The notes beneath the pieces are model-generated. The model saw nothing but the letters and a program-made list of their open reading frames with translations. It was not told where the DNA came from and did not search any database. Below are positions 3,934 to 42,977 of a DNA stretch of 64,000 nucleotides, piece by piece. The translations under genes were made by a program, and so were the position numbers. The stretch comes from an uncultured Bacilli bacterium (GTDB taxonomy: Bacteria > Bacillota_I > Bacilli_A > RF39 > UBA660). The stretch lies in assembly GCA_934120715.1 (NCBI GenBank), contig CAKOUW010000001.1, positions 262,599 through 326,598 of the forward strand. Reading direction: 5' to 3'. Each line of letters begins with the position of its first letter. The first letter of the stretch is position 1.

Positions 3934-4458
3934 TTATTTTAAAAATTTATTATTTTCTTTTTCGTATTTTAATGTTGTTTTCTCACCGTGGCCTGGGTAC
4001 AAGATTGTATCATCTTCATAGTTTTTAAGTTTTTCGATACTTTTCTTTAGGTCATTTAGGTCACCACCTGGTAGGTCATATCTACCAACTGATTCTTTAA
4101 AAATAAAGTCGCCTACAAACATTACTTTTTCTTCTCTAAAATAAAATGATACTGAGTCTTTTGAATGACCTGGAGTATATAAACATTCAAAGTTGAATTT
4201 ACCTATTGTATATTTATTTTCCATTAGATTACTTTTTTTAAATATTTTTATACTTCTTTTGGTTAAAAAGTTTCTAAGAGCTCCAATGTGGTCAAAGTGT
4301 GAGTGAGTTATTAATACGCCTAACACTTTATTGTCTCCTACTGCTTCTTTTATTTTTAAATAATCGTCCCCAGGATCTACTACTAAGCATTCTTTATTAT
4401 TTATTAAAACGTAACAATTTTCATCTAAAACACCTGTTATAATTGTCTTTATTTCCAT
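3934..4458 (-). CDS. MBL-fold metallo-hydrolase (174 aa)
   Basis: HxHxDH zinc-binding motif (THSHFDHIG), plus downstream His/Asp ligand pattern of the metallo-beta-lactamase fold. Confidence 0.7.
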   Translation of the reverse strand: MEIKTIITGVLDENCYVLINNKECLVVDPGDDYLKIKEAVGDNKVLGVLITHSHFDHIGALRNFLTKRSIKIFKKSNLMENKYTIGKFNFECLYTPGHSKDSVSFYFREEKVMFVGDFIFKESVGRYDLPGGDLNDLKKSIEKLKNYEDDTILYPGHGEKTTLKYEKENNKFLK

Positions 4459-4468
4459 AAGTTCTCCT

Positions 4469-5248
4469 TTATTGTTCTATATATTTATTTTCAAGTATAT
4501 AGTTATAATTCATGTCTAATTTAAATACGTAGATATATTTACCGCTTTTTAAATTGTTTGGTAGTTCTATGCCTTCATTACCATAATATTTTACATCTTC
4601 TGTTAAGTATATTCTGCCATCTTTAGTATATGCTTTTGTTAACTTTTTATCTACTCGGAAGGTTGTGGTATAAGCACTGGTACATTGACCTTCTACATAC
4701 TCTCCTCTTTTCTCAATGTATTGATAACCACCGATACAATTATTTCCTAATTGAATATTTCTATCTATTAAATTATTGTCGCTTCCAAACAGCTCACTAT
4801 ATGCTAAATGAAGAGATTCAACTTTAAAGGCTTGAGGATGAGTTTCTTCAGTTTCTATACATGTATATGAAACCATACTTGTGTCACTGAAAAGATTACA
4901 ATTTGAATCATAAAACTTACTATTTGGAATTTGTCTAAAGGCAAGATATAATTTATAATTGTCGTCCATGGTACTAGATAAAGCAAGGTCCTCCCTTATA
5001 TTGGTTGAAACTTTATTGTATAAGGATTTAACTATGGAAGAATCTATTTCTAATTTTTTTTCTCCTTTATCACTAATGGGAGTACAATTGTATTTTAACT
5101 GAGCTATTTCCTGTTGGTGCTTAATGTATATATAGCAGGTAAAAAAACAAAACATAGATATTAGTAATAGTATAAAAATAGTTTGTGAGGCACTTTTTTT
5201 ATAAATGATTTTTGTGTCATTGTTCATCTTTATCACCCTTTTATTCAT
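4469..5248 (-). CDS. membrane-anchored or secreted hypothetical protein (259 aa)
   Basis: N-terminal TM/signal anchor followed by a hydrophilic, Tyr-rich extracytoplasmic region. Confidence 0.45.
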   Translation of the reverse strand: MNKRVIKMNNDTKIIYKKSASQTIFILLLISMFCFFTCYIYIKHQQEIAQLKYNCTPISDKGEKKLEIDSSIVKSLYNKVSTNIREDLALSSTMDDNYKLYLAFRQIPNSKFYDSNCNLFSDTSMVSYTCIETEETHPQAFKVESLHLAYSELFGSDNNLIDRNIQLGNNCIGGYQYIEKRGEYVEGQCTSAYTTTFRVDKKLTKAYTKDGRIYLTEDVKYYGNEGIELPNNLKSGKYIYVFKLDMNYNYILENKYIEQ

Positions 5249-5291
5249 TAAGTAAATTTTAATATATTTTTATGTTATTTACAAGTAGAAA

Positions 5292-5632
5292 GTAGAACAA
5301 AAGAATAAAAATTAAAATAATTTTAAATTTTTATTCGCATTGGTCGTCACCGATCAACATTCCTACTTCATAGATAGAGTATTCTCTATTCTCCATAGGC
5401 TTAAATTCCGATAGTCGCTACCGTACTTTTTTATTTTACTTTTCTTCTTCTTAATTATTTTAACAATATATTTTTAATCCTTTAAACATAATATTTACAC
5501 TCATATTTATATCTCTATCATTTTCATAACCACAATTTATATATGTAATGCACCTCCATAATCTTGTCTTACTATAATAATGCACAAACATTTGTTTGCC
5601 AATACATTTCTTTAAATATATACCATTAGTTA
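5292..5632. repeat. copy 1 of a ~330-bp repeat; inverted with respect to copy 2 at 27386-27715
   Basis: The reverse complement of 5292-5632 aligns to 27386-27715 at roughly 95% identity (few substitutions, one ~12-nt indel). Contains an imperfect 16-bp palindrome GCAAACAAATGTTTG(T/C)GC and a terminal AT-only palindrome. Confidence 0.75.
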
Positions 5633-5680
5633 ACACTGTTCTTTATAAAAAAAATCCTTATAAATAAAAAAGGAAGAATT

Positions 5681-7498
5681 TTACTCTTCCTTTTCAAACT
5701 GAGAATTATATAAATTAGCATAAAAACCACCTTTTTTTAGAAGTTCTTCATGATTTCCTTGTTCAACAATATCTCCTTCATTCATGACTAAGATTAAGTC
5801 AGCATTTTTAATAGTTGATAATCTGTGAGCAATTATGAAACTGGTTCTTCCTTCCATTAATTTATCCATGGCGTTTTGAATTAGAATCTCAGTTCTGGTA
5901 TCTACACTACTAGTTGCTTCATCTAAAATTAGTATCTTAGGGTTAGCAAGTATAACTCTAGCTATTGTTAATAATTGTTTTTGACCACCGGAAATATTAT
6001 CAGCTTCTTCATTTAAAACCATATCATAACCGTCAGGAAGCGTTTTGATAAAATGATCGACGCTGGCTGTTTTGCAGGCTTCAATTATTTCGTGATCATC
6101 GGCATCTAATTTTCCATATTTTATATTTTCTTTTATTGTGCCATTAAATAACCATGTATCCTGTAGAACCATTCCAAATAATTTTCTTATTTCATGTCTA
6201 TCGAATTTTGTTATATCTTTACCATCTATTAAAATTTTTCCATCATTTAATTCATAAAAACGCATTAGTAATTTTACGATTGTAGTCTTTCCTGCTCCAG
6301 TTGGACCTACGATGGCAATTTTTTGACCACTTTTAACCTTGGCTGAAAAGTCTTTGATAATTATTTTATTTTCATTATAACCAAATTTTACATGATCAAA
6401 TTCAATATTACCTTCAATGTTATTTATTTTTAATGGATTAGTTGGAGCGGCCTTTTCTTCTTCAGTTTTTAAGAAGTCAAAAACTCTCTCACTTGCGGCT
6501 ACTGCAGATTGAATATTACTCATTACTTGAGATAATTGATTTATTTGTTGGGTGAAATTTCTAACGTATTGGGTAAATGATTGAATTTCTCCAACTTCTA
6601 TCTTATCAATAATAACCATGTATCCACCTAAAATAGATACTACTACATAACCTAAGTTTCCAATAAATTGCATTATTGGATGCATAGCTGTTGATAGGAA
6701 TTGGCTTTTCCAAGCACTATTATATAAAGTTTGGTTTAATTCTTTAAACTCGTCTATAGCTTGATTTTCAGCATTAAATGCTTTTACTATATCATGACCA
6801 CCATATATTTCTTCTATGTGTCCATTTAAATGTCCTAAATAGTCTTGTTGCATGGCAAAGTATTTTTGACTCTTTTTAACGATTTTACCTAGTACTAGGG
6901 AACAAAGTGGTATTATTAGAAGACAAGTAATTGTCATTGTCACATTTATTGATATCATCATAATTGTTATACCAATTATTGTTGCTATACCGGTTATTAT
7001 AGTTGTGATTGATTGATTTAGACATTGTGTTAGCGTATCAATATCATTAGTTATAATTGATAAAACTTCACCATGAGTTTTATTATCAAAAAAGCTCATT
7101 GGCAGGCGGTTAATTTTCTCACTTAGTTGATTTCTTAATTTATATGATAAGTCATTTGATACATCACTCATAATTATTCCTTGTATTCCTGAACATAAGG
7201 CGCTAATTATGTATAGTATTACTAGTAATAGTGATGTTTTTCCTATGTAGTTAAAGTCTATTCCTCCGGTATTGGATATTTTCTTAATTAGACCATTAAA
7301 TATTTCTGTTGTTATATTTCCTAATATTTTAGGACCTATTATAACAAATACTGTTGATAATATAGCAAAAAAGATAACGATTGCTATTTTTAACTTGTAC
7401 TTTTTTAAATAAGAAAGAAGTTCTAAGAGAGTGCTTTTAAAATCTTTAGCTTTTTCTGAGGTATGATTTTGACCTGGTCCATGTCCAACTTTAGGCAT
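5681..7498 (-). CDS. ABC transporter, fused permease/ATP-binding subunit (type I exporter, 605 aa)
   Basis: Six-TM N-terminal domain, Walker A GPTGAGKTT, ABC signature LSGGQKQ, Walker B ILILDEATS. Confidence 0.85.
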   Translation of the reverse strand: MPKVGHGPGQNHTSEKAKDFKSTLLELLSYLKKYKLKIAIVIFFAILSTVFVIIGPKILGNITTEIFNGLIKKISNTGGIDFNYIGKTSLLLVILYIISALCSGIQGIIMSDVSNDLSYKLRNQLSEKINRLPMSFFDNKTHGEVLSIITNDIDTLTQCLNQSITTIITGIATIIGITIMMISINVTMTITCLLIIPLCSLVLGKIVKKSQKYFAMQQDYLGHLNGHIEEIYGGHDIVKAFNAENQAIDEFKELNQTLYNSAWKSQFLSTAMHPIMQFIGNLGYVVVSILGGYMVIIDKIEVGEIQSFTQYVRNFTQQINQLSQVMSNIQSAVAASERVFDFLKTEEEKAAPTNPLKINNIEGNIEFDHVKFGYNENKIIIKDFSAKVKSGQKIAIVGPTGAGKTTIVKLLMRFYELNDGKILIDGKDITKFDRHEIRKLFGMVLQDTWLFNGTIKENIKYGKLDADDHEIIEACKTASVDHFIKTLPDGYDMVLNEEADNISGGQKQLLTIARVILANPKILILDEATSSVDTRTEILIQNAMDKLMEGRTSFIIAHRLSTIKNADLILVMNEGDIVEQGNHEELLKKGGFYANLYNSQFEKEE

Positions 7499-9665
7499 TT
7501 TCTAATTCCTCCTTACTTAATTGTGATTGAGCTATTTCCTTATATATTTTACATTTTTCTAATAGTTCTTTATGTGTTCCTATACCAACTATATTGCCTT
7601 CATTTAAGACGACTATTTTATCTGCATTCATAATGGTTGATATTCTTTGAGCAACTATTAGTACTGTTTTATTTTTAGTTATTTTAGCTAGCTCTTTACG
7701 TAATTTTGCATCTGTTTTAAAGTCTAGGGCTGAGAATGAGTCATCAAAGATGTAAATATCTGGATTTTTAGCGATGGCACGAGCTATAGATAACCTTTGT
7801 TTTTGACCACCAGAGACGTTAGTTCCACCTTGAGCTATTTGATAGTTTTCTTTTCCTTTTAGCTTTGAAACAAATTCAGTGGATTGAGATATATCTAGTG
7901 CTTTTTTTACCATTTCATCTGTTATATTATTGTTTCCATATTTTATATTTTCTTTAATTGTTCCAGTGAATAGAACACCCTTTTGAGGAACAAATCCTAT
8001 TTTATCACGTAAGCTTTTAAGACTTACTTCTTGAATGTTTGTATCATCTATTAAAATTTCACCACTAGTTATATCATAGAATCTTGGAATTAAATTTATT
8101 AGAGTAGATTTCCCAGAACCGGTTGAACCTATAAAAGCGGTTGTTTCACCACTTTCAGCAGTGAAGTTGATGTCTGTCATTACATCATAATCAGCATCTG
8201 GATATCTAAAAGAAACATTTTTAAATTCTATTTTATTAGTGCCATTTTTCTTAAATTCTATCGAGTTTTCTGGATCGGTAACAGTATTTTTAGTTTCTAA
8301 TACTTCCATTACTCTTTTAGCTGATACGTTGGCTCTTGGTAACATGATTGACATCATAGAAATCATTAAGAAAGCCATGATTATTTGCATTGTATATTGG
8401 ATGTAGGCCATAATATCTCCTACTTGCATGCTTCCATTGTCAACACCTATTGCTCCTTTATAAATTAGGGCAATACTTACAAAATTCATTATTAGCATCA
8501 TAAGAGGCATCATAAAACTCATTACCCTATTTACGAATAAGTTTACTTTAGTTAATCTTAAATTAGCATCATCAAATCTTTTTTCTTCGTGTTTTTCATT
8601 TGAAAAAGCTCTAATAACTGGTAGACCTGATAGTATTTCTCTAGTTACTAAGTTAAGCTTATCTATTAGCTTTTGAATCTTTGTAAACTTTGGCATTGCT
8701 ACTATGAATAAAGTAATGATTACCACTAGGATTGATAAGATGGCAAGCCCTATAATATAGGTCATAGAGGCATTAGTTCTAAGCGCTTTTATTACACCAC
8801 CTATACCAATTATTGGAGCGTAAAATACTACTCTAAATAGAAATACTATTACCATTTGAACTTGTTGAATATCATTAGTTGTTCTGGTTATTAATGATGC
8901 CTGCCCTAAGTTCTTCATTTCACTTTTTGAAAAACCAACCACTTTTTTGAAAACTTTATCACGCAATGTTTTAGATAGTTTAGCTGCCATTTTTGAACCA
9001 ATATAGACTGTTAGTATACCATCTATCATTATAAGCATTGCTATCAAGATCATTATGGCTCCAGCTTTTATAATGTATAAAGTTTGGATCTTATTAACAT
9101 CAATATTAATTCTTTTATATTCTGTTTTAACATAATTTACAGCTGCTTGATCAATAATTGTCGTTGGATAATCTGCCATTTTTTCATCAAATGTTTTTAA
9201 CATTTTATTTTTTTCTTCTTCTGGCATTACTTTTAATAATCGATATATATCAGTACCCTTTGGAATATTAAAATTTTCTGTTGACTTATCACTTTCCTTA
9301 GCTTGATCAATGAAACTGATTATAGTCATTGGTTTTCTTAATATATTATTAATTTTTGTAGTATCTTTTTCATCTTTTAACTTATAAATGACTTCGCCGT
9401 TTGCTTTTTTATTTGATTTGTAGTAGCTATCATTTATATATTTTTGGTCACTTTCGGGCATAAATAATAGTATTTTGTCATAGCTTGTCTGCCCTATTTC
9501 TGTGATAGCAGCATTTTCTATTCCAGACTGTTGTATTCCAATGTTTACAATTTTTGATGTATAGTCTGGTAAAGTTAAATCAAGCCCAGCTTGAACAACA
9601 AGTAAAAATATGATGGCGAGACAAGATACAACTGAACTTTTCAAATATTTAAATACTTTAATCAT
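7491..9665 (-). CDS. ABC transporter, fused permease/ATP-binding subunit with large extracytoplasmic loop (724 aa); heterodimer partner of 5681-7498
   Basis: Walker A GSTGSGKST, signature VSGGQKQR, Walker B IYIFDDSFSALD. About 140-aa hydrophilic insert after TM1. 8-nt overlap with the downstream gene. Confidence 0.85.
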   Translation of the reverse strand: MIKVFKYLKSSVVSCLAIIFLLVVQAGLDLTLPDYTSKIVNIGIQQSGIENAAITEIGQTSYDKILLFMPESDQKYINDSYYKSNKKANGEVIYKLKDEKDTTKINNILRKPMTIISFIDQAKESDKSTENFNIPKGTDIYRLLKVMPEEEKNKMLKTFDEKMADYPTTIIDQAAVNYVKTEYKRINIDVNKIQTLYIIKAGAIMILIAMLIMIDGILTVYIGSKMAAKLSKTLRDKVFKKVVGFSKSEMKNLGQASLITRTTNDIQQVQMVIVFLFRVVFYAPIIGIGGVIKALRTNASMTYIIGLAILSILVVIITLFIVAMPKFTKIQKLIDKLNLVTREILSGLPVIRAFSNEKHEEKRFDDANLRLTKVNLFVNRVMSFMMPLMMLIMNFVSIALIYKGAIGVDNGSMQVGDIMAYIQYTMQIIMAFLMISMMSIMLPRANVSAKRVMEVLETKNTVTDPENSIEFKKNGTNKIEFKNVSFRYPDADYDVMTDINFTAESGETTAFIGSTGSGKSTLINLIPRFYDITSGEILIDDTNIQEVSLKSLRDKIGFVPQKGVLFTGTIKENIKYGNNNITDEMVKKALDISQSTEFVSKLKGKENYQIAQGGTNVSGGQKQRLSIARAIAKNPDIYIFDDSFSALDFKTDAKLRKELAKITKNKTVLIVAQRISTIMNADKIVVLNEGNIVGIGTHKELLEKCKIYKEIAQSQLSKEELENA

Positions 9666-10253
9666 TTAATCCTCCTTATATATTCCATAACATATTATGT
9701 CTAGCTTTTTTAGATATTGAACTTTTATTTCTTCATTTAACTCATTTTTAAAACATTCTGTTATTGATAAAAATAAATTATGTATAAACATACTAAATAT
9801 AAATTCTAAATCACAACTTTTTATCTTGCTGCTATCAATATCTTTTTCTATGTATAAAAATAGTAGATGCCCCAAATTTTTTCTTAAATTACTATGAATA
9901 TTGTAGAAAATAGAGATATTTTTTAAAACCCCTTGATAACTATTATCAAAAATTAAAGTTACTGCTTTATCATATAATTTTATAAATGTATTTCTTAGTT
10001 CACCTTTATTTTCTATTAACATTTCTTTTACTATGTCATTTAATTTTTTGTTGTATTCGTCTATTATATATAAAAATAAATCATCTTTATCTTTAAAGTA
10101 CATATAAAAGCTACCCCTTGGAATACTTGCCTTAGAAATGATTTTATTTATAGACACATCATAGTAATTATTATTAGAAAATTCTGTAATAGCGGCTTTT
10201 ATTAATTTTTGCTGCTTTTTAATATCTAAATTTAGAAATGTTTTTGTGGGCAT
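9666..10253 (-). CDS. TetR/AcrR-family transcriptional repressor (195 aa)
   Basis: N-terminal TetR HTH (AAITEFSNNNYYDVSINKIISKASIPRGSFYMYF). Immediately precedes, and is translationally adjacent to, the ABC pair. Confidence 0.75.
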   Translation of the reverse strand: MPTKTFLNLDIKKQQKLIKAAITEFSNNNYYDVSINKIISKASIPRGSFYMYFKDKDDLFLYIIDEYNKKLNDIVKEMLIENKGELRNTFIKLYDKAVTLIFDNSYQGVLKNISIFYNIHSNLRKNLGHLLFLYIEKDIDSSKIKSCDLEFIFSMFIHNLFLSITECFKNELNEEIKVQYLKKLDIICYGIYKED

Positions 10254-10308
10254 AATTATTTTCCTTTCTAGCTATAACATAAATATATATTATGCTATAT
10301 AATTATAT

Positions 10309-10323
10309 TATGACAAGTTGTCA
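10309..10323. promoter_or_regulatory. perfect 7-1-7 palindrome ATGACAAGTTGTCAT between -35-like TTGACG and the -10 region upstream of the TetR gene; candidate TetR operator
   Basis: Seen directly in sequence. Position is typical for autoregulated TetR operons. Confidence 0.4.
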
Positions 10324-10384
10324 TGCGTCAACCAAAATTTTGCAAAAGAAAAAACTTGGGAACACCAAGTCTTGAATTATTATA

Positions 10385-10461
10385 TGGTAGCCTGTACGGA
10401 ATTCGAATCCGTGAATGCTGCCTTGAGAGGGCAGTGTGTTAAGCCACTTCACCAACAGGCC
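10385..10461 (-). tRNA. tRNA-Glu (anticodon CUC)
   Basis: Cloverleaf folded by hand: acceptor GGCCTGT/ACAGGCT, anticodon stem CTGCC/GGCAG with loop CTCTCAA, T-loop TTCGAAT, encoded CCA. Own TTGTCA-17-TAAAAT promoter. Hairpin plus T-run terminator downstream. Confidence 0.8.
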
Positions 10462-10562
10462 ATAAATGTCTCTAATTAAAAGACATTTATATTTTAACAT
10501 TTTTTTATTTTTTTGACAATAGAATTTATGATATTTTGGAATTATCTTTTTAAATATTCTCT

Positions 10563-13199
10563 TTATATTATAAATTTAATTAGCCAGATCAATATAACAA
10601 TTACATATAATACTATTGCTCCATAAAATAATGTGCTATAAGTATAATAGGCAGCTGTTTTTAAAAACTTGTTACTAGTGGCCTTTTTAAAGTCAATTGA
10701 TAATATAACAAATATTATAGTTGCAACTAGAGATATTATTATTCCTTTTTTTAAGTCTTTGTTTTTATATGTATATACAATACTACTATGCCCCTTTTCT
10801 ACTTTAACACCTAGTAATCCTCCAAACATCTTAATAGTGTTTTTATTTTTGTTATTGACTAAAACATTGTAGTTACCACTATAAGATACTGGTATAACTA
10901 AATAGCCATCTGTATTGGTAGTAACATCAATCTTTATTTTATTTTTATCAAATAAAATATTATAATTTAACTTATTATTTTTAATAAAATCTTCATATTT
11001 GCTAATACTCATGGTAGAAATAGTTAGTTTAGAGATATCAATTGGTTTAATTAATTTGATTTTTATATTAACATTTTCATTATCATAAACTCCTAAACTA
11101 TAAGTACCATTACTAGTTTTAGTGGGATAGGAATCACTATATAGTTTATCATTAATATAAATAAGAGCTATGTTTTTAAATTCACCTTTAAGGCTTTCAT
11201 CTAAAGTTTTTAAAAGATCTAAATATAAAATAGACTTTTCTCTAACTTTGATGTCATACTCTATATAATTATCATTACTTTTGATAACTGTTCTTCCACT
11301 TTTACTAGTAGAAATGCCCTTAATATTCTTTGCTTGATAAATGCTAAATAAGTTATCATTAGAAGTGATACTATTATATATTTTATTTTGATAAGTAAAA
11401 GTATCGTCTTTATCTATATTAAAATTATTTTTAGCTAAATACAAATAATTTAGGTCATAATTTAACTCATAGAAGTTATATCCGTATTTACTATCTTTTA
11501 AAGTATAAAAATCACTTTCTATATCTTTATCTGTAAGAAAATATTTATTGGAAAGAATAGTGTCTGTAAATAAAGTACCACCATTAGAAAATATCATTGT
11601 CCAAAAGCTAGAGTAACCTAGTTTCTTATAAAATACTAAAGAGTTTCTATTTACCAGAGAGGTAAAATGATCAATTGACTGATAATTACTAACAATTCCA
11701 TCATTAATAACAAAGTCTGTCATATCTGAAGTTTCTGTCTTTAATTTATAATAATTATTAGAATTTTTATTTTCTATATTATTTAAGACTGTATAAGAGT
11801 TTTTAATTATACCTTGATAATTTTTAATCCCAATATATAAAAATGTATTAAATATGATATTACTAATAATGACTATATATATTATAGGCTTGTATATTTT
11901 TTCGTTTCTAAATAGATTTAATCCTACATTGATAATAAATATTACTATTGATAATAAAGTAAGTATTATAAAGGCTTTTTTGGCATAAATCATTGTAATA
12001 TTATAGACTGCTGTTTGTATATCTCTATATACCAATTTAAATGTAATAATGTAAATACTTATTAATAGGAAAATGCTTAATACACTAATTATTTTTAAGA
12101 TTTTATCAGATAACGAAATATTAATTTTGATATTTTTAATATTAAAGAGATAACTTCCACCTAAAACTAGTAAGTAAAATAGTATAAAACCATATCTATT
12201 AGGGAAAAATGAATAAGACATAAAATGAAATATTTTATTTAATGGTTCTACTATGTAGGGAATAATTAATATTAAGATTGCTGGTATATACCATTTAAGA
12301 AATTTTTCATTATTCTTTCTATTAATTATTAATAAGCAAGTAAAAGTAACTAATAAAATAGATATATTAAAGAAATTTAATTTATCAAATAAACAGCCAA
12401 GTAAATTATTAAAGATATTATTAGAAGTATTGGAACGAGCTGATGAAAATATTTGTCTAAGTGTTGGATAAGAAATGAATGAAGTCATTATCATTGGCAA
12501 TATTGTAAATATACCTAAACTAAGCATTACTTTTTTTTGCTTTTCCTTAGAGACATTACACTTGATATAAATAAATGCTATTAAAAATATAAATATAAGC
12601 ATCATATATGATAAATAGAATGAGAAACATATGGCTAAAAATAATGTAATGCCATACATATATGGTTTATCTTCATCAATTAATTTTTTAAGTCCTACTA
12701 CAATTAATGGAAACATATACACAACATCCATCCAAGCAGTGATTTGATAATTAATAAGACTATATCCACTAAAGGCGTATAATAATGCTAACGGAATAAA
12801 CATTTTATTATCTTTTTTAAATAAATATTTTAGGGAATATAAACAAGTAATAGCAGAAAGGACAAATTTTACCATAACAATTAAAGAAATGGCTAGATAG
12901 ATATCATTTCTTTTAAAGAAGAGAATGATAAAATTAATTGGACTTGCTAAATAGTAAGAAAATATTCCAAAGAAGTTTTCTCCACCACCTGATGTATAAT
13001 CTACAAGTAAAGATCCACTTTCTAAAATCGTATCCCATAAATGATAAAAAAGAGCTGATATTTGTGTATACAGGTCTCCTGTTAAGACTGTATTTTTACC
13101 AAATGGATAAATTCTAAGAATTAAGAATAAAATTACTAATATCCCTACTGAAATACCTCCAACAATGAAATAATCTTTAAATTTCTTCATAATTACCAC
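10563..13199 (-). CDS. YfhO-family polytopic membrane protein (878 aa), putative glycosyltransferase
   Basis: N-terminal motifs IYPFG...LTGDLYTQ...F and YYLASPINFIILFF match the conserved YfhO N-terminus. More than 12 TM segments plus a large C-terminal extracytoplasmic domain and final TM. Confidence 0.7.
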   Translation of the reverse strand: MVIMKKFKDYFIVGGISVGILVILFLILRIYPFGKNTVLTGDLYTQISALFYHLWDTILESGSLLVDYTSGGGENFFGIFSYYLASPINFIILFFKRNDIYLAISLIVMVKFVLSAITCLYSLKYLFKKDNKMFIPLALLYAFSGYSLINYQITAWMDVVYMFPLIVVGLKKLIDEDKPYMYGITLFLAICFSFYLSYMMLIFIFLIAFIYIKCNVSKEKQKKVMLSLGIFTILPMIMTSFISYPTLRQIFSSARSNTSNNIFNNLLGCLFDKLNFFNISILLVTFTCLLIINRKNNEKFLKWYIPAILILIIPYIVEPLNKIFHFMSYSFFPNRYGFILFYLLVLGGSYLFNIKNIKINISLSDKILKIISVLSIFLLISIYIITFKLVYRDIQTAVYNITMIYAKKAFIILTLLSIVIFIINVGLNLFRNEKIYKPIIYIVIISNIIFNTFLYIGIKNYQGIIKNSYTVLNNIENKNSNNYYKLKTETSDMTDFVINDGIVSNYQSIDHFTSLVNRNSLVFYKKLGYSSFWTMIFSNGGTLFTDTILSNKYFLTDKDIESDFYTLKDSKYGYNFYELNYDLNYLYLAKNNFNIDKDDTFTYQNKIYNSITSNDNLFSIYQAKNIKGISTSKSGRTVIKSNDNYIEYDIKVREKSILYLDLLKTLDESLKGEFKNIALIYINDKLYSDSYPTKTSNGTYSLGVYDNENVNIKIKLIKPIDISKLTISTMSISKYEDFIKNNKLNYNILFDKNKIKIDVTTNTDGYLVIPVSYSGNYNVLVNNKNKNTIKMFGGLLGVKVEKGHSSIVYTYKNKDLKKGIIISLVATIIFVILSIDFKKATSNKFLKTAAYYTYSTLFYGAIVLYVIVILIWLIKFII

Positions 13200-34680: not shown

Positions 34681-35157
34681 TTATTTAGTTTTCTTCTTTG
34701 CTTTGCCCTTTTCTTCATTATAACAATTTATAACAGCATCTAATGTATAACCAGCATGTAACATAATTTGTTGTTCAGAATCATGCATACCGCAAACTAT
34801 TTGTCTAAAATTAGCACCACTTAGCCTTCCAACAGCCCCGGTACCAATTGCAATTGTTGCAATTGGTTCTCCATTAGCAGGTATCTTATCGAAGCATTCT
34901 TTAATAACTTCTGCTTGATTTTCACCCCAACCATTATGTAAAGAGTGACAAACTAATGCATGGAATGTTTTATCCCCAACAGTTTTTGACAATACAGTAC
35001 CTATTTCATGTTCTCCACAATTTGCTAATTCATTCCAATATTTTCTTGATACTTGTCCGGCAAAACCAGAATCATTATAACCTTCAGTATTAACAGCAAA
35101 TGCTATATGTTTTGCTTCTGAATTGAATATATCATCTTGAACAGTTTTAACCACCAT
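34681..35157 (-). CDS. hypothetical protein (158 aa), possibly distant macro-domain-like
   Basis: Weak resemblance to macro-domain glycine-rich segments (IAIGTGAVG). Low confidence. Confidence 0.3.
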   Translation of the reverse strand: MVVKTVQDDIFNSEAKHIAFAVNTEGYNDSGFAGQVSRKYWNELANCGEHEIGTVLSKTVGDKTFHALVCHSLHNGWGENQAEVIKECFDKIPANGEPIATIAIGTGAVGRLSGANFRQIVCGMHDSEQQIMLHAGYTLDAVINCYNEEKGKAKKKTK

Positions 35158-35280
35158 AACACGCTACCTCCTCAATCGAAAGTTTATTATACACTAACTA
35201 TAAATAAAAATCAATTGCTTTAGCCAATTAAATCAATCTAATTATGTTAAGCATTAACAAAATTCTCTATTTAGATATAA

Positions 35281-35600
35281 CTTTAGCTATTGTTTCAAAG
35301 TCACATTTTGAATTAATTGCAGGTATATGAATAAAGGCCATTTTTATATCTAAGGACTTATCTTTAATATATTTCATATTTTCATAATAGATATTGTTGC
35401 TCAAATAATTTCCAGCATTTGTTGGTAAAAAATATACACTGTTGTTTTCTTTCGAAAATTCAACAAATTTTTTCTCTTTATTTCCAAATAGTTCTATATA
35501 AATATGGTCGCAATGATGTTTTTGCCCAAATGAATTATATATTTGTATCTATTTTTGCTAATTTTATTTTCTAATTCTTTTACTTTATTCGTAAAACTCC
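35281..35600 (-). pseudogene. degraded gene remnant at the left border of the island
   Basis: GAGGAG RBS followed by ACG (not ATG) and about 25 in-frame codons. A frameshift then leads into an ~90-codon open frame (HHCDHIYIELFGN...AFIHIPAINSK). No intact ORF in the track. Confidence 0.3.
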
Positions 35601-35777
35601 TCACTTTCCTTATAACAAAAAAACTAGACGGTAATTCTAGTTAATATTTATTACTACTCAAAAAGTTCGAGCTATCAATCAAATCTGGTGCGATAGTTAA
35701 GATAGTCCGAAACCATCACAACAAATAAATAAACAATTTAATTCTATAACCATTATAACACATTTTTAATTAATTGC

Positions 35778-36563
35778 TTATGAATTTTGCATTTCTGTTA
35801 TGGTTTTTTCTTTTATATGATAGTCAATATTTCTTTCTTCACAAAACTTAATAACTTGATTTGCTAGATTATTATAATATTCTTTATAACCTTTATATTG
35901 ACTAACAAGTTTATTATAATGAAGTCTGCCAAATATTATTTTATCTACAAAAGAAATAGAATTTAGTATTTCTTCAAAATTTTGATCAATTATATTTGGT
36001 GTAGGATAAGGTTCAATACTAACCCAAGTTTTACATCCTTTATCATGAAGTTTTTTTAAACTATTAATTCTATCTAAATATGGTGCTGACCCAGGCTCCA
36101 TCTTTTTTCTAAATCCTTCATTTAGAGATATAAGAGTTATACCATAACTATTGTCTTTACTCAAATCTGCTAATTCTATTGGTAATACTCCTTTAGTTAA
36201 AGCAGTACATGGCAAATTATAACTATTTATTAGTTTGATAACATCTATTGATAAATTGCATATATCTTCATATCCATACATAAAAGGATCTGTGGTAAAG
36301 CATAAATGAACACTTTTTATTTTATCTTTTAATTTAGGTAGTTCTTTATTTAAAAGTTCCATTGTGTTTGAAACAATAACTGGACAAATCCATTCTTCAT
36401 AAGTTTTTACAGTTCCAAATCTTTTGGCTAACATTGAGGCATAACAAGGATACTTACAACCATGTGAACAACCTTGAACATGATTTATAGTATAATCACC
36501 ATATTCTACACCTGTTTTATATAGAAGAGATTTTCTAGTTAAAGATTTACTACAACTTCCCAT
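35778..36563 (-). CDS. SPL/photolyase-like radical-SAM homolog with atypical CX3CX3C motif (261 aa)
   Basis: N-terminal NHVQGCSHGCKYPCYA. This matches the COG1533-type GCxHxCxYCYA motif but has one extra residue between the second and third Cys. Confidence 0.6.
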   Translation of the reverse strand: MGSCSKSLTRKSLLYKTGVEYGDYTINHVQGCSHGCKYPCYASMLAKRFGTVKTYEEWICPVIVSNTMELLNKELPKLKDKIKSVHLCFTTDPFMYGYEDICNLSIDVIKLINSYNLPCTALTKGVLPIELADLSKDNSYGITLISLNEGFRKKMEPGSAPYLDRINSLKKLHDKGCKTWVSIEPYPTPNIIDQNFEEILNSISFVDKIIFGRLHYNKLVSQYKGYKEYYNNLANQVIKFCEERNIDYHIKEKTITEMQNS

Positions 36564-36597
36564 AAGTATTACCTCCTTATTATCTAATACTATTATA

Positions 36598-37743
36598 TCA
36601 TACTTTATCGTTAATTTTATATTTACTTTCTTTATAGTTATTTTTTCTTACACCATCTGGTGTAATTTTTTCTAATATACCATCTGCTAATAATGGATTA
36701 ATAATTGGTTTTATGATATGTGAATCTTTTAATAATGAATTTTCTAGGACATAAGTTTCAATCTCTTCATAAGAAAGTTCACCTTTCTCATATGCAAGTT
36801 TAATTATTGATTCTTTCATAGGACCGCTATATGTACTTATTAGTAAATCATCCGTATTAAATAATTTTAATTGAGATTTATCTATATCAATTTGTTTTTT
36901 AAAAGATTCTTCACCATTAAACACTTCCCATATACTCTCTTTAATTAATTCTAAACCTCTCTTGTTTGGTGTAAAGAAAATAATATAATATAACTCTGCA
37001 TTATTTGTATTATTAAAGCGATAAGCAAATGAATACTTAATGTTTTTTGTATCCTTATATGTATTAATTAATTTATTTAATATTTCCTTATTTTCATCAT
37101 CATCTATATTAATATCAGTTATAACTGAACTTAGCTCATTTTTGATTGTAGACATTTTGTTTTTCGCAGATGTATTATTTTTATTTCTTGTAACATCACT
37201 ACTAAAATAATTAAATAATAATTCACAATAAAACTCATCAATAAATCTTTTAATAGTTGTTAATAGATTTGGTATTCCAAAGTTATATGGATCAGTATAT
37301 AACAATGTGAAGCAAGAATTACTAAATGTATTTTTTTTAATTAGCAAAGATAGATATTCTACAACATCTTTATCTGTAATATTAATCCTCAAATTATTTG
37401 GTATATTATAATTACTTATTAATTCTTTTAATACATTAATCTTATCTTTATCATAATCATTTAAAAACACATAAAATTGTTTAGCATCGTTTTCTTTAGC
37501 ATATTCAATAAATAATTCAATAACTTCTATACAAGTTCCTTTTATTCCATTTTTATAAATTCCTGCATTACACATGCTATCTATAAAAACAATATTTCTT
37601 TGTCTATAATTTACGGCAACATTCAACCATCTTCTAACATAATCCTTAATATATTTTATTTTATATTGTGTATGTAATTTTGCTTCATCTAAATACTTTT
37701 CGTTTTCTTTTGCTATTATTTCTAAATCTAAAACTTTATCCAT
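36598..37743 (-). CDS. partner protein of the three-Cys radical-SAM-like enzyme (381 aa), function unknown
   Basis: Same strand, 34-nt gap to the downstream gene. No catalytic motif recognised. Confidence 0.45.
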   Translation of the reverse strand: MDKVLDLEIIAKENEKYLDEAKLHTQYKIKYIKDYVRRWLNVAVNYRQRNIVFIDSMCNAGIYKNGIKGTCIEVIELFIEYAKENDAKQFYVFLNDYDKDKINVLKELISNYNIPNNLRINITDKDVVEYLSLLIKKNTFSNSCFTLLYTDPYNFGIPNLLTTIKRFIDEFYCELLFNYFSSDVTRNKNNTSAKNKMSTIKNELSSVITDINIDDDENKEILNKLINTYKDTKNIKYSFAYRFNNTNNAELYYIIFFTPNKRGLELIKESIWEVFNGEESFKKQIDIDKSQLKLFNTDDLLISTYSGPMKESIIKLAYEKGELSYEEIETYVLENSLLKDSHIIKPIINPLLADGILEKITPDGVRKNNYKESKYKINDKV

Positions 37744-37826
37744 TTTTTCCTCCTAACTACTAAAAAAGAGCATAGTATTAGTTATCATATTAATAAGTCT
37801 CTACTAGCCCTTATTTACAATATTAA

Positions 37827-38729
37827 TTATTTTAATGTTTTTTGTACTGGTTTTTCTAATAAATCTGTCCAATGTCCACTAGGCATAAATGCTGATGTGT
37901 CTTGACCATTTCTTTGTGCTTGTTGAAATGCATTCCGTTGTTCATCAGTAAGAACATCTTTAAAATGACTTGAATAGAATTTATACCATGCATTGTAAGA
38001 TGGTGTTGCAGTGATATGTTTATCAATTTCAGGGGCTGATAATTCTACACCAAATTTTGTTGTTTGATATACCATATATTCTAATGCATATTGTTCCTCA
38101 GTTAAATCAATTTCAGGTATTCTTCCATGAGCCATATCATGTCTACATCTCCAAATATGACCACCCATAGCATCAATTGCAAAATATAAATCAACTTCAC
38201 TTAAATTATTAATTCTTTCTACATCTTTAATACTACCTGGATCTATTCCGTAGATTCTAGCATTCTTAATTCTATCCTCTTTTTCTTGCTCGCTTTCTAA
38301 ATAATCAGAAACTTCTTTTCCATTATATAATTTTAAGTTTAGAACTTTTGCTCCATTAGAAAATGCTCTACCATTAACAATTTCCTTAATTCTATTTTCA
38401 GGTGCAACTACATCCCACTCAATAGTAGGCATAGCATCTTTTTCTTCATCTCCTGAACGTTGTAAATCATAACTGCAAATTGGATTTACACCACCCATAA
38501 CTTCTGTTAAAACCGGTAATAATTCATCTAATACTTCTTTTGTGGATGAAGCAGTTGATATTAACAAATATTCATCACCACTAAATGTTATACTTATTTC
38601 TTTTGAATCTAATGTTCCTTCAACACGACCCATTAGTGCAGCAAATGGATGTGTATTTAATCTTTCACCATATTTTTTCTTCAATAATTCATCTAACTCA
38701 CTAGAAGTAGAAATTAAAGTTTTTGCCAT
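37827..38729 (-). CDS. hypothetical protein (300 aa), first gene of the cargo operon
   Basis: ORF with an RBS. Contains His/Cys cluster HIWRCRHDMAHG. No family recognised. Confidence 0.45.
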   Translation of the reverse strand: MAKTLISTSSELDELLKKKYGERLNTHPFAALMGRVEGTLDSKEISITFSGDEYLLISTASSTKEVLDELLPVLTEVMGGVNPICSYDLQRSGDEEKDAMPTIEWDVVAPENRIKEIVNGRAFSNGAKVLNLKLYNGKEVSDYLESEQEKEDRIKNARIYGIDPGSIKDVERINNLSEVDLYFAIDAMGGHIWRCRHDMAHGRIPEIDLTEEQYALEYMVYQTTKFGVELSAPEIDKHITATPSYNAWYKFYSSHFKDVLTDEQRNAFQQAQRNGQDTSAFMPSGHWTDLLEKPVQKTLK

Positions 38730-38841
38730 TTTTAAAACCTCCCTTTGTCTAGTTATTCATTATAGCATACTTTTATATTATTGAAACAAAAAACTACATT
38801 TTTACTAATTATTCATACAAAAAACTACATTTTTTTCTAAA

Positions 38842-40188
38842 TTATCTTTCGTAATCATCTTTTTCTTTGCTTAAATCTAAATCTTCAATGTCATCATCAT
38901 CTAAAACATTGTCTTCATACATTTCATTAACAACATCAATGTATTTATCGTCTTTATCATACCAACTATGAAGTTTATCATGTAAGAAAGACATTAGTTT
39001 CTCGAACTTATCTTTCCAATAGTTTAGTGTATCCTTTAAATCATTTATTTTAGATTTTAAAAATGATATTTCATTATCTTTTTCTTTTATAGTATCATTT
39101 AAAGTCTTAACTCTTAAATTAAGTGCTTCATTATTTTCAGTAAGAGTTCTAATTTTATCGTTCTTATCTTTTAATTGTTCATGGGCATTAACTAATGTAT
39201 TAGATAAGGTTTGTATTTTATCATATTCTTTACTAGTATTATCTACTTGTTCGATAAAGTCGATAAAAGAATCTTTATCTTCTTTTGATAAAATATAATT
39301 ATCTTTATTTAGTTTAGATGTTTTTAATTTATCAATTTTATCTTTTATATCTTTGTAGTTTTGTTTTAACTCTGAAGATTTTTTATTTGCTTGTTTTAGA
39401 TTTTCAGTATTTTTTTCAATTTGTTTCTTCATCTCAATATAGTTATCCATATCGGACACATGAATATCTCTGTTTCTACCTTTTTGTTTTTTCTTTAAAG
39501 TAGATTCTAACCTATATACTTGGTTAAATTCTTCAATACATAATGTTCTCATTTTATCTTGTAATCTTATTAGAGATTCTTTTGTAAATACATCGGATTT
39601 ACCAACTTGTTTTTCCATTCCATTTTTATTCTTATATTTAATTGGAACACCAACAATATGTAAGTGTGGACTAGTCTCATCATAATGGATTATAGCACTA
39701 GCTACTTTAAAATTAGGAACTAATAATTCTAAATCATTAACTTGTTTTTTATAGACTTCTGACATTTTCCTTTTAAAATCTTCATCTTTGGTATCCCAGT
39801 ATTCTTTATCTCCAAGTTCAAGAATTATTTCACAAGCAAGATCCTTTTTCTCATTATTAGATACATTATCAAAATAATTATCTATCATTCTACTAGGTCT
39901 AGATTGTTTAGAATTGTATTCAAGTCTTACTTCTTCAAACTCACTTAAATATAATTCTTTTACATCATCAAGTGGAGAAGAAGTTCCTCTTACTATTTCA
40001 ATTAGTTCTTGTTGATTATCATATTTTCTATAATTATGTTTATCTACCTTTGATAATTGTCTTACATTTTGAATTGCATTATTTGGTAAAGAAGTTGTTC
40101 CACTTAAATTATTTTTACCATTTTGTTTAGATATATTTTTTCTATTTTTATCACTACCTAAATGTAGGGAATAAGCAAGTTCTGACAT
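38842..40188 (-). CDS. Mob/Pre-family (MobM-like) plasmid-recombination relaxase
   Basis: HxDExTPHxH motif (HYDETSPHLHIV) in the N-terminal relaxase domain. Long coiled-coil C-terminal half typical of MobM/Pre. Confidence 0.7.
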   Translation of the reverse strand: MSELAYSLHLGSDKNRKNISKQNGKNNLSGTTSLPNNAIQNVRQLSKVDKHNYRKYDNQQELIEIVRGTSSPLDDVKELYLSEFEEVRLEYNSKQSRPSRMIDNYFDNVSNNEKKDLACEIILELGDKEYWDTKDEDFKRKMSEVYKKQVNDLELLVPNFKVASAIIHYDETSPHLHIVGVPIKYKNKNGMEKQVGKSDVFTKESLIRLQDKMRTLCIEEFNQVYRLESTLKKKQKGRNRDIHVSDMDNYIEMKKQIEKNTENLKQANKKSSELKQNYKDIKDKIDKLKTSKLNKDNYILSKEDKDSFIDFIEQVDNTSKEYDKIQTLSNTLVNAHEQLKDKNDKIRTLTENNEALNLRVKTLNDTIKEKDNEISFLKSKINDLKDTLNYWKDKFEKLMSFLHDKLHSWYDKDDKYIDVVNEMYEDNVLDDDDIEDLDLSKEKDDYER

Positions 40189-40438: not shown

Positions 40439-42298
<1,860 letters not shown>

Positions 42299-42513: not shown

Positions 42514-42795
42514 TTAGTTATGTTTTAAATAATTTTCTAATTCAGATAGTTTAATCTTATTATTTAAGTTTTCAATAAATATCTCATTAGAATAATTAAA
42601 AGCTAGAAAGGTTATATCGTTAATTATAATTCTATGTGGTTCTAAATATATAAGATTAGTTTTATCTATTGTCCTTAAATTACCATTAATAATAATTGGT
42701 TTAACACTACAAAACTCACAAATAAATTCTAATCTCTTTTTTAATGATTCTTCCATTCTAACTTCTTGCTTGATAACATTTACCATTTTAATCAA
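42514..42795 (-). CDS. hypothetical protein (93 aa) upstream of the recombinase
   Basis: ORF only. Could be an accessory or directionality factor, but there is no motif support. Confidence 0.35.
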   Translation of the reverse strand: MIKMVNVIKQEVRMEESLKKRLEFICEFCSVKPIIINGNLRTIDKTNLIYLEPHRIIINDITFLAFNYSNEIFIENLNNKIKLSELENYLKHN

Positions 42796-42904
42796 TCCTT
42801 TCTTTGAAAGACTTTTTTCTAAACAAGAAAAAAATCAATCCTAATTTAGAATTGATTGTCTATTTATTCTCGAAACTATAAAAAGTTCGAGCGGATTTCC
42901 CTAT

Positions 42905-42977
42905 GGTGCCGAAAGACAGAATTGAACTGTCCGCTGATCCTTACCAAGGACCTGTTTTACCACTAAACTATATCGGC
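42905..42977 (-). tRNA. tRNA-Thr (anticodon GGU)
   Basis: Hand-folded: acceptor GCCGATA with one mismatch, anticodon loop TTGGTAA, T-loop TTCAATT, encoded CCA. Confidence 0.7.

Follow-up and report, generated by a model that had tools for sequence, protein, structure and literature searches.

A mobilizable element beside tRNA-Thr carries a TcmP gene paired with a CX3CX3C radical-SAM gene, a candidate DNA-modifying system

A 64,000-nucleotide (nt) stretch of DNA from an uncultured Bacilli bacterium of the RF39 lineage (assembly GCA_934120715.1, contig CAKOUW010000001.1, positions 262,599 to 326,598), which as a whole we call the window, contains a small mobile element that carries two adjacent genes of particular interest. 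One encodes a protein of 261 amino acids (aa) from the radical S-adenosylmethionine (SAM) superfamily, hereafter rSAM, and the other encodes a 381-aa partner that belongs to the TcmP family. An earlier, sequence-only reading of this DNA had described them, together with the gene for a 300-aa protein, as a three-gene operon on a mobilizable, recombinase-bearing island. The coordinates of the three open reading frames (ORFs) are confirmed: they lie on one strand, with intergenic gaps of 34 nt (rSAM/TcmP) and 83 nt (TcmP/300-aa ORF), and the island does encode a MobV relaxase and a large serine recombinase. The operon as a conserved unit does not hold up in our neighborhood census.

Instead, the conserved unit is a gene pair. 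We collected 85 rSAM-bearing loci, of which 83 had room for an upstream gene, and a TcmP-family gene lies directly upstream of rSAM on the same strand in about 72 of these 83 usable loci, across many phyla. (Here and below, percent identities given for loci and elements are relative to the window proteins, L-numbers denote sampled loci, and P-numbers denote rSAM relatives.) Our own TcmP profile (A1) found 46–48 of the partners and was too narrow, missing about a third; among the remaining partners, the TcmP model TIGR04474 rescued 18 of 19 that are about 280 aa long and 6 of 10 others. Furthermore, the two proteins occur as fusions with TcmP at the N-terminus and rSAM at the C-terminus, namely P0362 (634 aa; TcmP 170.7 bits at residues 17–257, rSAM at 379–567) and P0371 (592 aa; TIGR04474 109.9 bits). 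No third gene is constant among the census neighbors. The window element itself has close relatives at L002 and L004, which carry the same relaxase and recombinase with rSAM proteins 96–97% identical and TcmP proteins 92% identical, and in both an unrelated 171-aa ORF (L002:6228-6743; L004:1726-2241) occupies the slot of the 300-aa ORF. Nucleotide homology to these relatives breaks exactly at 38733 and 37833, the boundaries of the 300-aa ORF. Based on the upstream TcmP gene in about 72 of 83 loci, the fusions, and the swapped slot, we conclude that the conserved unit comprises two genes and that the 300-aa ORF is variable cargo. The tight linkage proposed by the sequence-only reading is thus upheld for rSAM and TcmP and is lost for the 300-aa gene, which is replaced in L002 and L004.

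Two further observations concern these genes. The gene that separates the relaxase from tcmP is the sole difference between these near-identical elements, as in a cassette swap at ORF boundaries that keeps the repeat-bearing intergenic region, and the possibility that the 171-aa ORF is a truncated form of the 300-aa gene was rejected since the two share no similarity. A 161-aa protein, P0496, joins a TcmP N-terminus (profile positions 9–83) straight to an rSAM C-terminus (query residues 175–257) and is probably either an in-frame deletion derivative of the pair or an assembly chimera. As to the 300-aa protein, the HxxxCRHD cluster previously reported in it is present, and the protein matches nothing in any family or domain library. 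It has about 150 homologs. In the three families that we sampled (L005; L006–L008; L009–L010) they stand as lone genes surrounded by housekeeping genes, or within an integrase island that also has SduA_C (Shedu-like) and DUF4435 genes nearby, and none has TcmP or rSAM beside it. The 300-aa gene may be an independent mobile defense or anti-defense gene.

The rSAM protein passes the superfamily threshold of Pfam Radical_SAM (PF04055, 44.5 bits versus a cutoff of 29.5) and carries GCSHGCKYPCYA within INHVQGCSHGCKYPCYA, so that its Cys triad has CX3CX3C spacing. The canonical radical-SAM cluster motif is CX3CX2C, and the protein failed a test for that motif. The unusual spacing recurs in 119 of the 120 closest homologs. 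Among the best 150 representatives after clustering at 50%, 73 read xGCxHGCx(Y/F)PCYA and 16 read the canonical GCxHGCxYCYA, while the other 61 lack a motif match and are mostly short fragments; CX3CX3C is hence found in 73 of the 89 motif-bearing representatives. Since it is shared by homologs, the spacing is no sequencing artifact, and the one-residue insertion noted earlier is real and not a misread letter. The extra residue between the second and third Cys is a Pro, which, as far as these sequences tell, is fixed in the cluster loop across a large clade. The protein may bind a [4Fe-4S] cluster and cleave SAM.

The AlphaFold2 (AF2) model of rSAM has a mean predicted local distance difference test score (pLDDT) of 88.5. 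When the model was compared with the PDB using Foldseek, the top six matches were all spore photoproduct lyase (SPL; query-normalized TM-score 0.66–0.68, E 9e-8 to 4e-7), these were followed by generic radical-SAM enzymes, and every match at E ≤ 0.001 was a radical-SAM protein. A search of the PDB with the rSAM sequence profile (A2) gave no match and found no SPL chain. The earlier placement of the protein in the SPL/COG1533 neighborhood is nevertheless sound, given the Pfam score, weak matches to the PA0069 and Rv2578c families, and the SPL-like predicted fold. C88, which lies 48 residues beyond the third cluster Cys, is near-invariant among rSAM homologs and offers a lead, though only a lead, to a possible counterpart of the catalytic hydrogen-donor Cys of SPL.

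The rSAM family is large and widely distributed. At E ≤ 1e-5 the protein has matches in more than 7,900 clusters (90% identity), and relatives are found in at least 576 species genomes. Among the matches listed, the closest come from gut metagenome-assembled genomes of low GC content, labeled as uncultured Bacilli or Tenericutes, and identities of 62–70% are found in Actinomycetota, Akkermansia, Parasutterella, Cloacimonadales, Nitrospirota, Spirochaetia, and Calditrichales. A tblastn search of phages and plasmids with rSAM returned two unannotated metagenomic phage contigs and no plasmids. One relative, P0357 (1002 aa), is a fusion whose CX3CX3C rSAM domain (residues ~748–995) follows a long N-terminal extension with no match to TcmP; the extension contains repeated helix-turn-helix-like segments and an LDYQGMFG stretch and may be an alternative targeting module.

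The 381-aa partner scores 101.3 bits against TIGR04474 (cutoff 53), its residues 24–273 covering positions 2–261 of the 263 in the model, and it matches PDC-M30A of PADLOC over its full length (E 3.9e-20). Its predicted fold is nearest to the RlmJ family of N6-adenine methyltransferases, with a DPY motif and a C-terminal winged helix, and some TcmP homologs carry a C-terminal Pfam "GMT-like wHTH" (winged helix-turn-helix, wHTH) domain. Searches of the PDB gave no match with TcmP profile A1 and only nonsignificant methyltransferase matches with a profile of the short TcmP type (A3); because neither result was significant, the fold relationships are drawn from predicted structures. In an alignment of 49 homologs the invariant or near-invariant residues are D55 and G61 (FIDxMCNAG), D96, D126, and D151-P152-Y153, and the window protein thus displays a motif I-like FIDSMCNAG and a motif IV-like DPY. 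These conserved residues would correspond to methyltransferase motifs I to IV, with a motif IV of the (D/N)PP(Y/F)-like amino-methyltransferase type, an assignment that leans on the wider methyltransferase literature. In the shorter TcmP type, of about 280 aa, the sequences are the more classical IDAFAGxG and LDPYA; motif I of the window subtype reads MCNAG where shorter TcmPs have FAGxG. The sequence-only reading had found no recognizable catalytic motif in either partner of rSAM, which was mistaken for the 381-aa protein, a TcmP with methyltransferase motifs, and agrees with the empty library searches for the 300-aa protein.

The two members of the pair differ markedly in conservation. Across 41 loci, rSAM is at the median 68% identical to its counterpart in the window, and TcmP 28%. 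At L013 the rSAM is 97% identical and the TcmP, a 413-aa variant, 24% identical, and in L017 and L018 rSAMs that are 96% identical are accompanied by a different, 278-aa type of TcmP. A conserved, apparently catalytic protein with a fast-diversifying and exchangeable partner is the pattern that would be produced by a specificity subunit under arms-race selection.

The genes around the pair are consistent with such a setting. For the pairs in L019–L090 we searched the closest large ORF on either side (124 ORFs) against Pfam. Restriction-modification and helicase families are prominent among them, with ResIII (10), DEAD (8), N6_N4 methyltransferase (5), D12 methyltransferase (3), type ISP (2), Mrr_cat_2 (2), Eco57I (2), MmeI (1), and EcoR124_C/HsdR (1), in addition to HATPase_c_3 (2), UvrD (2), UDG (2), and about 12 integrases, recombinases, or resolvases. 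This picture agrees with PADLOC, which lists the related pair as a defense candidate. In L067, L082, and L086 (~3940-12100), two TcmP paralogs of about 378 and 289 aa precede a single rSAM, and a type III mod gene lies 4 nt past rSAM on the same strand, followed in L082 by ResIII, which looks like a composite operon. At another locus (L030), 33 nt separate TcmP from the end of a complete FokI endonuclease gene that precedes it. We rejected the idea that TcmP/rSAM stands in for the methyltransferase of that FokI system, given a 665-aa ORF directly upstream of the FokI gene that is presumably the methyltransferase.

The 16 representatives with the canonical motif are 36–51% identical to the query and on that account form a sister group. 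None of the sister relatives sampled in this identity range (three with CX3CX2C and two with divergent CX3CX3C) has a TcmP neighbor by any of three TcmP profiles, in a small sample that covers five families and includes two on short contigs. Sister P0379 lies within a phage-like run of small ORFs and sister P0378 within an integrase element, and P0397, which has the canonical motif (L099:571-5924), directly follows C5 and N6/N4 DNA methyltransferases in a phage-like cluster. The gene order at this last locus is C5 methyltransferase, N6/N4 methyltransferase, rSAM, a PAPS-reductase-type gene, an N6/N4 methyltransferase fragment, and RusA, and the cluster looks like a DNA-modification module. On the loci sampled, TcmP partnership is a trait of the core CX3CX3C clade, and the wider rSAM group is tied to mobile elements and, in one sampled locus, to DNA methyltransferases.

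The limits of the element in the window can be placed with some precision (Table 1). The 13-nt sequence GCTCGAACTTTTT occurs exactly twice in the window, where zero copies are expected by chance, and homology to the sister elements stops at ~35664-35729 and ~42910-42914, matching the ends marked by these repeats. Together with the tRNA-Thr gene, the repeats and homology limits indicate a 7.2-kb integrative mobilizable element inserted beside tRNA-Thr. It encodes only the recombinase, the relaxase, the variable ORF, TcmP, and rSAM, and the TcmP/rSAM module is its sole constant cargo. A megablast search with a 7.8-kb region gave no match in plasmid and phage collections.

Table 1. Genes and other features of the mobilizable element and its insertion site (window coordinates).
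Feature	Position	Strand	Description
Element end	35660-35672	-	13-nt direct repeat GCTCGAACTTTTT, putative attachment (att) core
rSAM ORF	35778-36563	-	261 aa; predicted SPL-like fold; C32-X3-C36-X3-C40; highly conserved constant module
TcmP ORF	36598-37743	-	381 aa; predicted class I methyltransferase fold; variable module, likely targeting subunit
300-aa ORF	37827-38729	-	contains HIWRCRHD; variable cargo slot, outside the conserved pair
Paired 27-nt direct repeats	38777-38834	strandless	intergenic, upstream of the variable slot; backbone
MobV / Mob_Pre relaxase	38842-40188	-	PF01076 45.3 bits vs cutoff 25.5; partial NF041497 MobV match
Large serine recombinase	40439-42292	-	element integrase; Resolvase, Recombinase, and Zn-ribbon domains
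Other element end	42880-42892	-	second copy of GCTCGAACTTTTT; 11 nt from tRNA-Thr
tRNA-Thr(GGT)	42904-42977	-	integration target adjoining the element

The 27-nt repeats at 38777-38803 and 38808-38834 are 93% identical and have the same final 18 nt (ACAAAAAACTACATTTTT). They are placed between the relaxase stop and the start of the 300-aa ORF, within a region (38733-38842) that stays homologous in elements with a different cassette. The perfect 18-bp repeat that had been ascribed to the upstream region of a three-gene operon is thus present, and it belongs to the element backbone and not specifically to TcmP/rSAM; the repeats are possibly an operator or promoter element. The window has a GC content of about 26%, and a scan for promoters and terminators was uninformative in such DNA (60 promoter-like sites versus 63.5 expected). 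In L017 the sequence downstream of rSAM resembles window positions 42592-42892, upstream of the recombinase, and this could be a circular or tandem junction. Just beyond the element in the window, a 158-aa ORF at 34681-35157 (- strand) has no match in any family library, and the stretch of ~500 nt between it and the att repeat (35158-35660) contains no ORF of 60 aa or more. Beside the insertion site of one sister element (L002:11654-16526) are a LigD primase-polymerase gene and a DUF4130/radical-SAM gene pair, the latter a different putative DNA-metabolism radical-SAM pair that has no equivalent in the window.

Tentatively, and with belief and doubt almost in balance, we propose that TcmP selects and presents a DNA base, that rSAM modifies this base, and that the resulting mark serves restriction, defense, or anti-defense. 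In such a mechanism TcmP and rSAM would form a complex, in which the wHTH domain and variable surfaces of TcmP would recognize a site on a nucleic acid, DNA most likely, and its DPY pocket would hold a flipped-out base. The CX3CX3C triad of the rSAM subunit would hold a [4Fe-4S] cluster, and this subunit would cleave SAM to a 5'-deoxyadenosyl radical and carry out radical chemistry either on the base or on a methyl group installed by TcmP, the latter by analogy with Trm5 and TYW1. The product would be a covalent DNA mark that might, for example, protect the DNA of the element or of its host. Orphan methyltransferases on mobile elements provide the same kind of DNA protection. That SPL, a DNA-acting enzyme, is the best structural match counts in favor of DNA as the target. 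The model as a whole draws on the pairing, the fusions, the predicted folds, the motif conservation, the rate asymmetry, and the genomic context; the binding of a cluster, the cleavage of SAM, the choice of DNA as substrate, the chemistry, and the biological role are presumptive steps within it. The pair probably modifies DNA in a restriction or defense arms race. Doubtful, in our judgment, is a bolder form of the idea, namely a programmable DNA-modifying enzyme that would place a new radical-SAM-dependent base mark at sites set by a swappable TcmP, acting against restriction or as a host defense, with the Cys spacing tied to complex formation with TcmP. We know of no radical-SAM-based epigenetic mark of mobile elements.

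A number of findings weigh against the proposal of a TcmP-directed DNA modification. The AF2 model of rSAM is of low confidence at residues 41–60, directly past the Cys triad, which makes the geometry of the cluster uncertain, and SAM cleavage by way of a CX3CX3C triad is hypothetical. Because of its MCNAG motif I, SAM binding by the window subtype of TcmP is itself uncertain. The solved structures nearest to TcmP are RNA methyltransferases (RlmJ, Trm1), so that RNA could be the substrate. The enrichment of restriction-modification and mobile genes near the pair is qualitative, having no matched random control, and the element encodes no cognate nuclease and hence no complete restriction-modification system. 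Finally, the literature on TcmP, DUF5131, PDC-M30, PF07505, GMT-wHTH, the three-Cys motif, and COG1533 yielded incidental mentions and no functional study.

Other functions of the pair can be envisaged. It might be an anti-phage or anti-plasmid effector of the PDC-M30 kind, in which DNA that is foreign or modified would be recognized by TcmP, and rSAM would use radical chemistry to damage or cross-link it, or would trigger abortive infection. We regard this as unlikely but as a serious contender, given that the match to PDC-M30A (E 4e-20) is accompanied by weak matches to PDC-M30B and PDC-M41B, that the pair is found among restriction-modification, Mrr, HATPase_c_3, and helicase genes, and that a hypervariable recognition partner would suit an arms race. 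Moreover, in one Pseudomonas panel PDC-M30 was somewhat more common in phage-resistant strains (68.8% of 32 strains; PMC10855318). However, the PDC candidates were found by "guilt-by-embedding" and are explicitly without experimental validation (PMC10855318), the match to component B is weak and confined to the N-terminus, neither protein has a sensor or nuclease domain, and the presence of rSAM relatives on phage-like and mobile elements would fit counter-defense equally well. A repair function akin to that of SPL, in which rSAM would reverse a specific lesion and TcmP would be the lesion-recognition or base-flipping subunit, appears improbable, although COG1533 is mentioned in two papers on SOS/LexA regulation. 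The SPL structural matches and the label "DNA repair photolyase" that homologs bear in their sources would be accounted for, but a hypervariable, swappable partner would not, nor would carriage as the sole constant cargo of a mobilizable element amid restriction-modification neighbors; in addition, rSAM matches no SPL family model in NCBIfam at E ≤ 0.01 and lacks the canonical SPL cluster motif.

The chance is similarly slim that the pair modifies rRNA or tRNA in the manner of RlmJ, Trm5/TYW1, or Cfr/RlmN, and would for instance confer resistance to a ribosome-targeting compound or retune translation. There is a precedent in wybutosine synthesis, where a radical-SAM enzyme acts after a methyltransferase, and rRNA is modified by Cfr, a radical-SAM enzyme that is mobile. 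A conserved RNA target would not, however, predict partners of 20–40% identity alongside near-identical rSAMs, the neighbors are DNA restriction-modification genes and not translation genes, and the rSAM fold is nearest to that of a DNA enzyme. Least credible of all is a three-protein system that includes the 300-aa HxxxCRHD protein. The shared strand, the 83-nt gap, and the failure to find a terminator-like site between the genes would be in keeping with it, but the sister element with 96–97% identical rSAM and 92% identical TcmP holds the unrelated 171-aa ORF in that slot, 0 of 3 sampled families of the 300-aa protein neighbor TcmP or rSAM, and no other census locus needs a third gene.

If our proposal of TcmP-directed base modification is true, the restriction and anti-restriction repertoire would gain a chemically new class of DNA (or RNA) modification, and the enzyme behind it would be modular, with near-identical catalytic subunits exchanging their specificity subunit. 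In that case there would also be a large natural family of CX3CX3C radical-SAM proteins with canonical CX3CX2C sisters for direct comparison, and a PADLOC/NCBIfam entry of unknown function would become a testable system. The gene content of that system is here corrected from three genes to two. New in this analysis are the fixed CX3CX3C clade with TcmP, the contrast in conservation between rSAM and TcmP, and the restriction-modification and mobile neighbors; the TcmP family and the related PDC-M30 pair are already catalogued. The description of this locus as an undescribed system therefore needs qualification, in that NCBIfam names TcmP and PADLOC lists PDC-M30, and it is accurate insofar as the literature yielded no experimental characterization.

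Comparison with known systems places the pair more closely. In wybutosine synthesis the class I methyltransferase Trm5 and then the radical-SAM enzyme TYW1 act on tRNA, and the genes for them are not fused and not mobile; the parallel is no more than an analogy, and the homology of rSAM to TYW1 is at the superfamily level alone. TcmP is about 12% identical to RlmJ/DUF519 (PDB 6QE5, 2OO3), with no significant match at the sequence level, and differs in its C-terminal helical/wHTH region and its obligate radical-SAM partner. The nearest sequence families of rSAM are PA0069, Rv2578c, and rSAM_mob_pairB (TIGR04470), matched at E 1e-16 to 1e-12 over residues 23–203, 23–194, and 8–204, and all three have the signature GCxHxCxY(P)CYA in common with it. 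The scores fall well below the family cutoffs (58 versus 360, 50.6 versus 430, and 44.9 versus 410), and rSAM differs from these families by the extra Pro in its cluster loop and by its other partner protein. SplB (PDB 4FHC) is the best structural match and has a radical-SAM partial TIM barrel of similar size, and the SPL family acts on flipped-out DNA bases. The window protein is nonetheless only ~14% identical to SplB, has CX3CX3C in place of the CX3CX2C of SPL, and comes with an obligate TcmP partner on a mobile element as opposed to a sporulation or repair context. The closest resemblance is to the TcmP/three-Cys pair (TIGR04474) and to PDC-M30 (TcmP plus a DUF5131-like protein). The TIGR04474 cutoff is passed and PDC-M30A is matched over the full length, TcmP likewise lies directly upstream of a noncanonical three-Cys radical-SAM-type protein, and the settings are again mobile elements and defense islands. 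The differences lie in both subunits: rSAM is not a member of DUF5131 (PF07505 22.4 versus 28.9, residues 17–95 on positions 2–83 of the 243-position model) and matches PDC-M30B over residues 16–55 only (E 7e-5), and the window subtype of TcmP is longer (381 aa versus about 280 aa) and has an MCNAG motif I. The pair is therefore best described as a variant of the catalogued, functionally uncharacterized TcmP/three-Cys pair (PDC-M30-like) in which the partner of TcmP comes from a distinct, SPL-like CX3CX3C clade.

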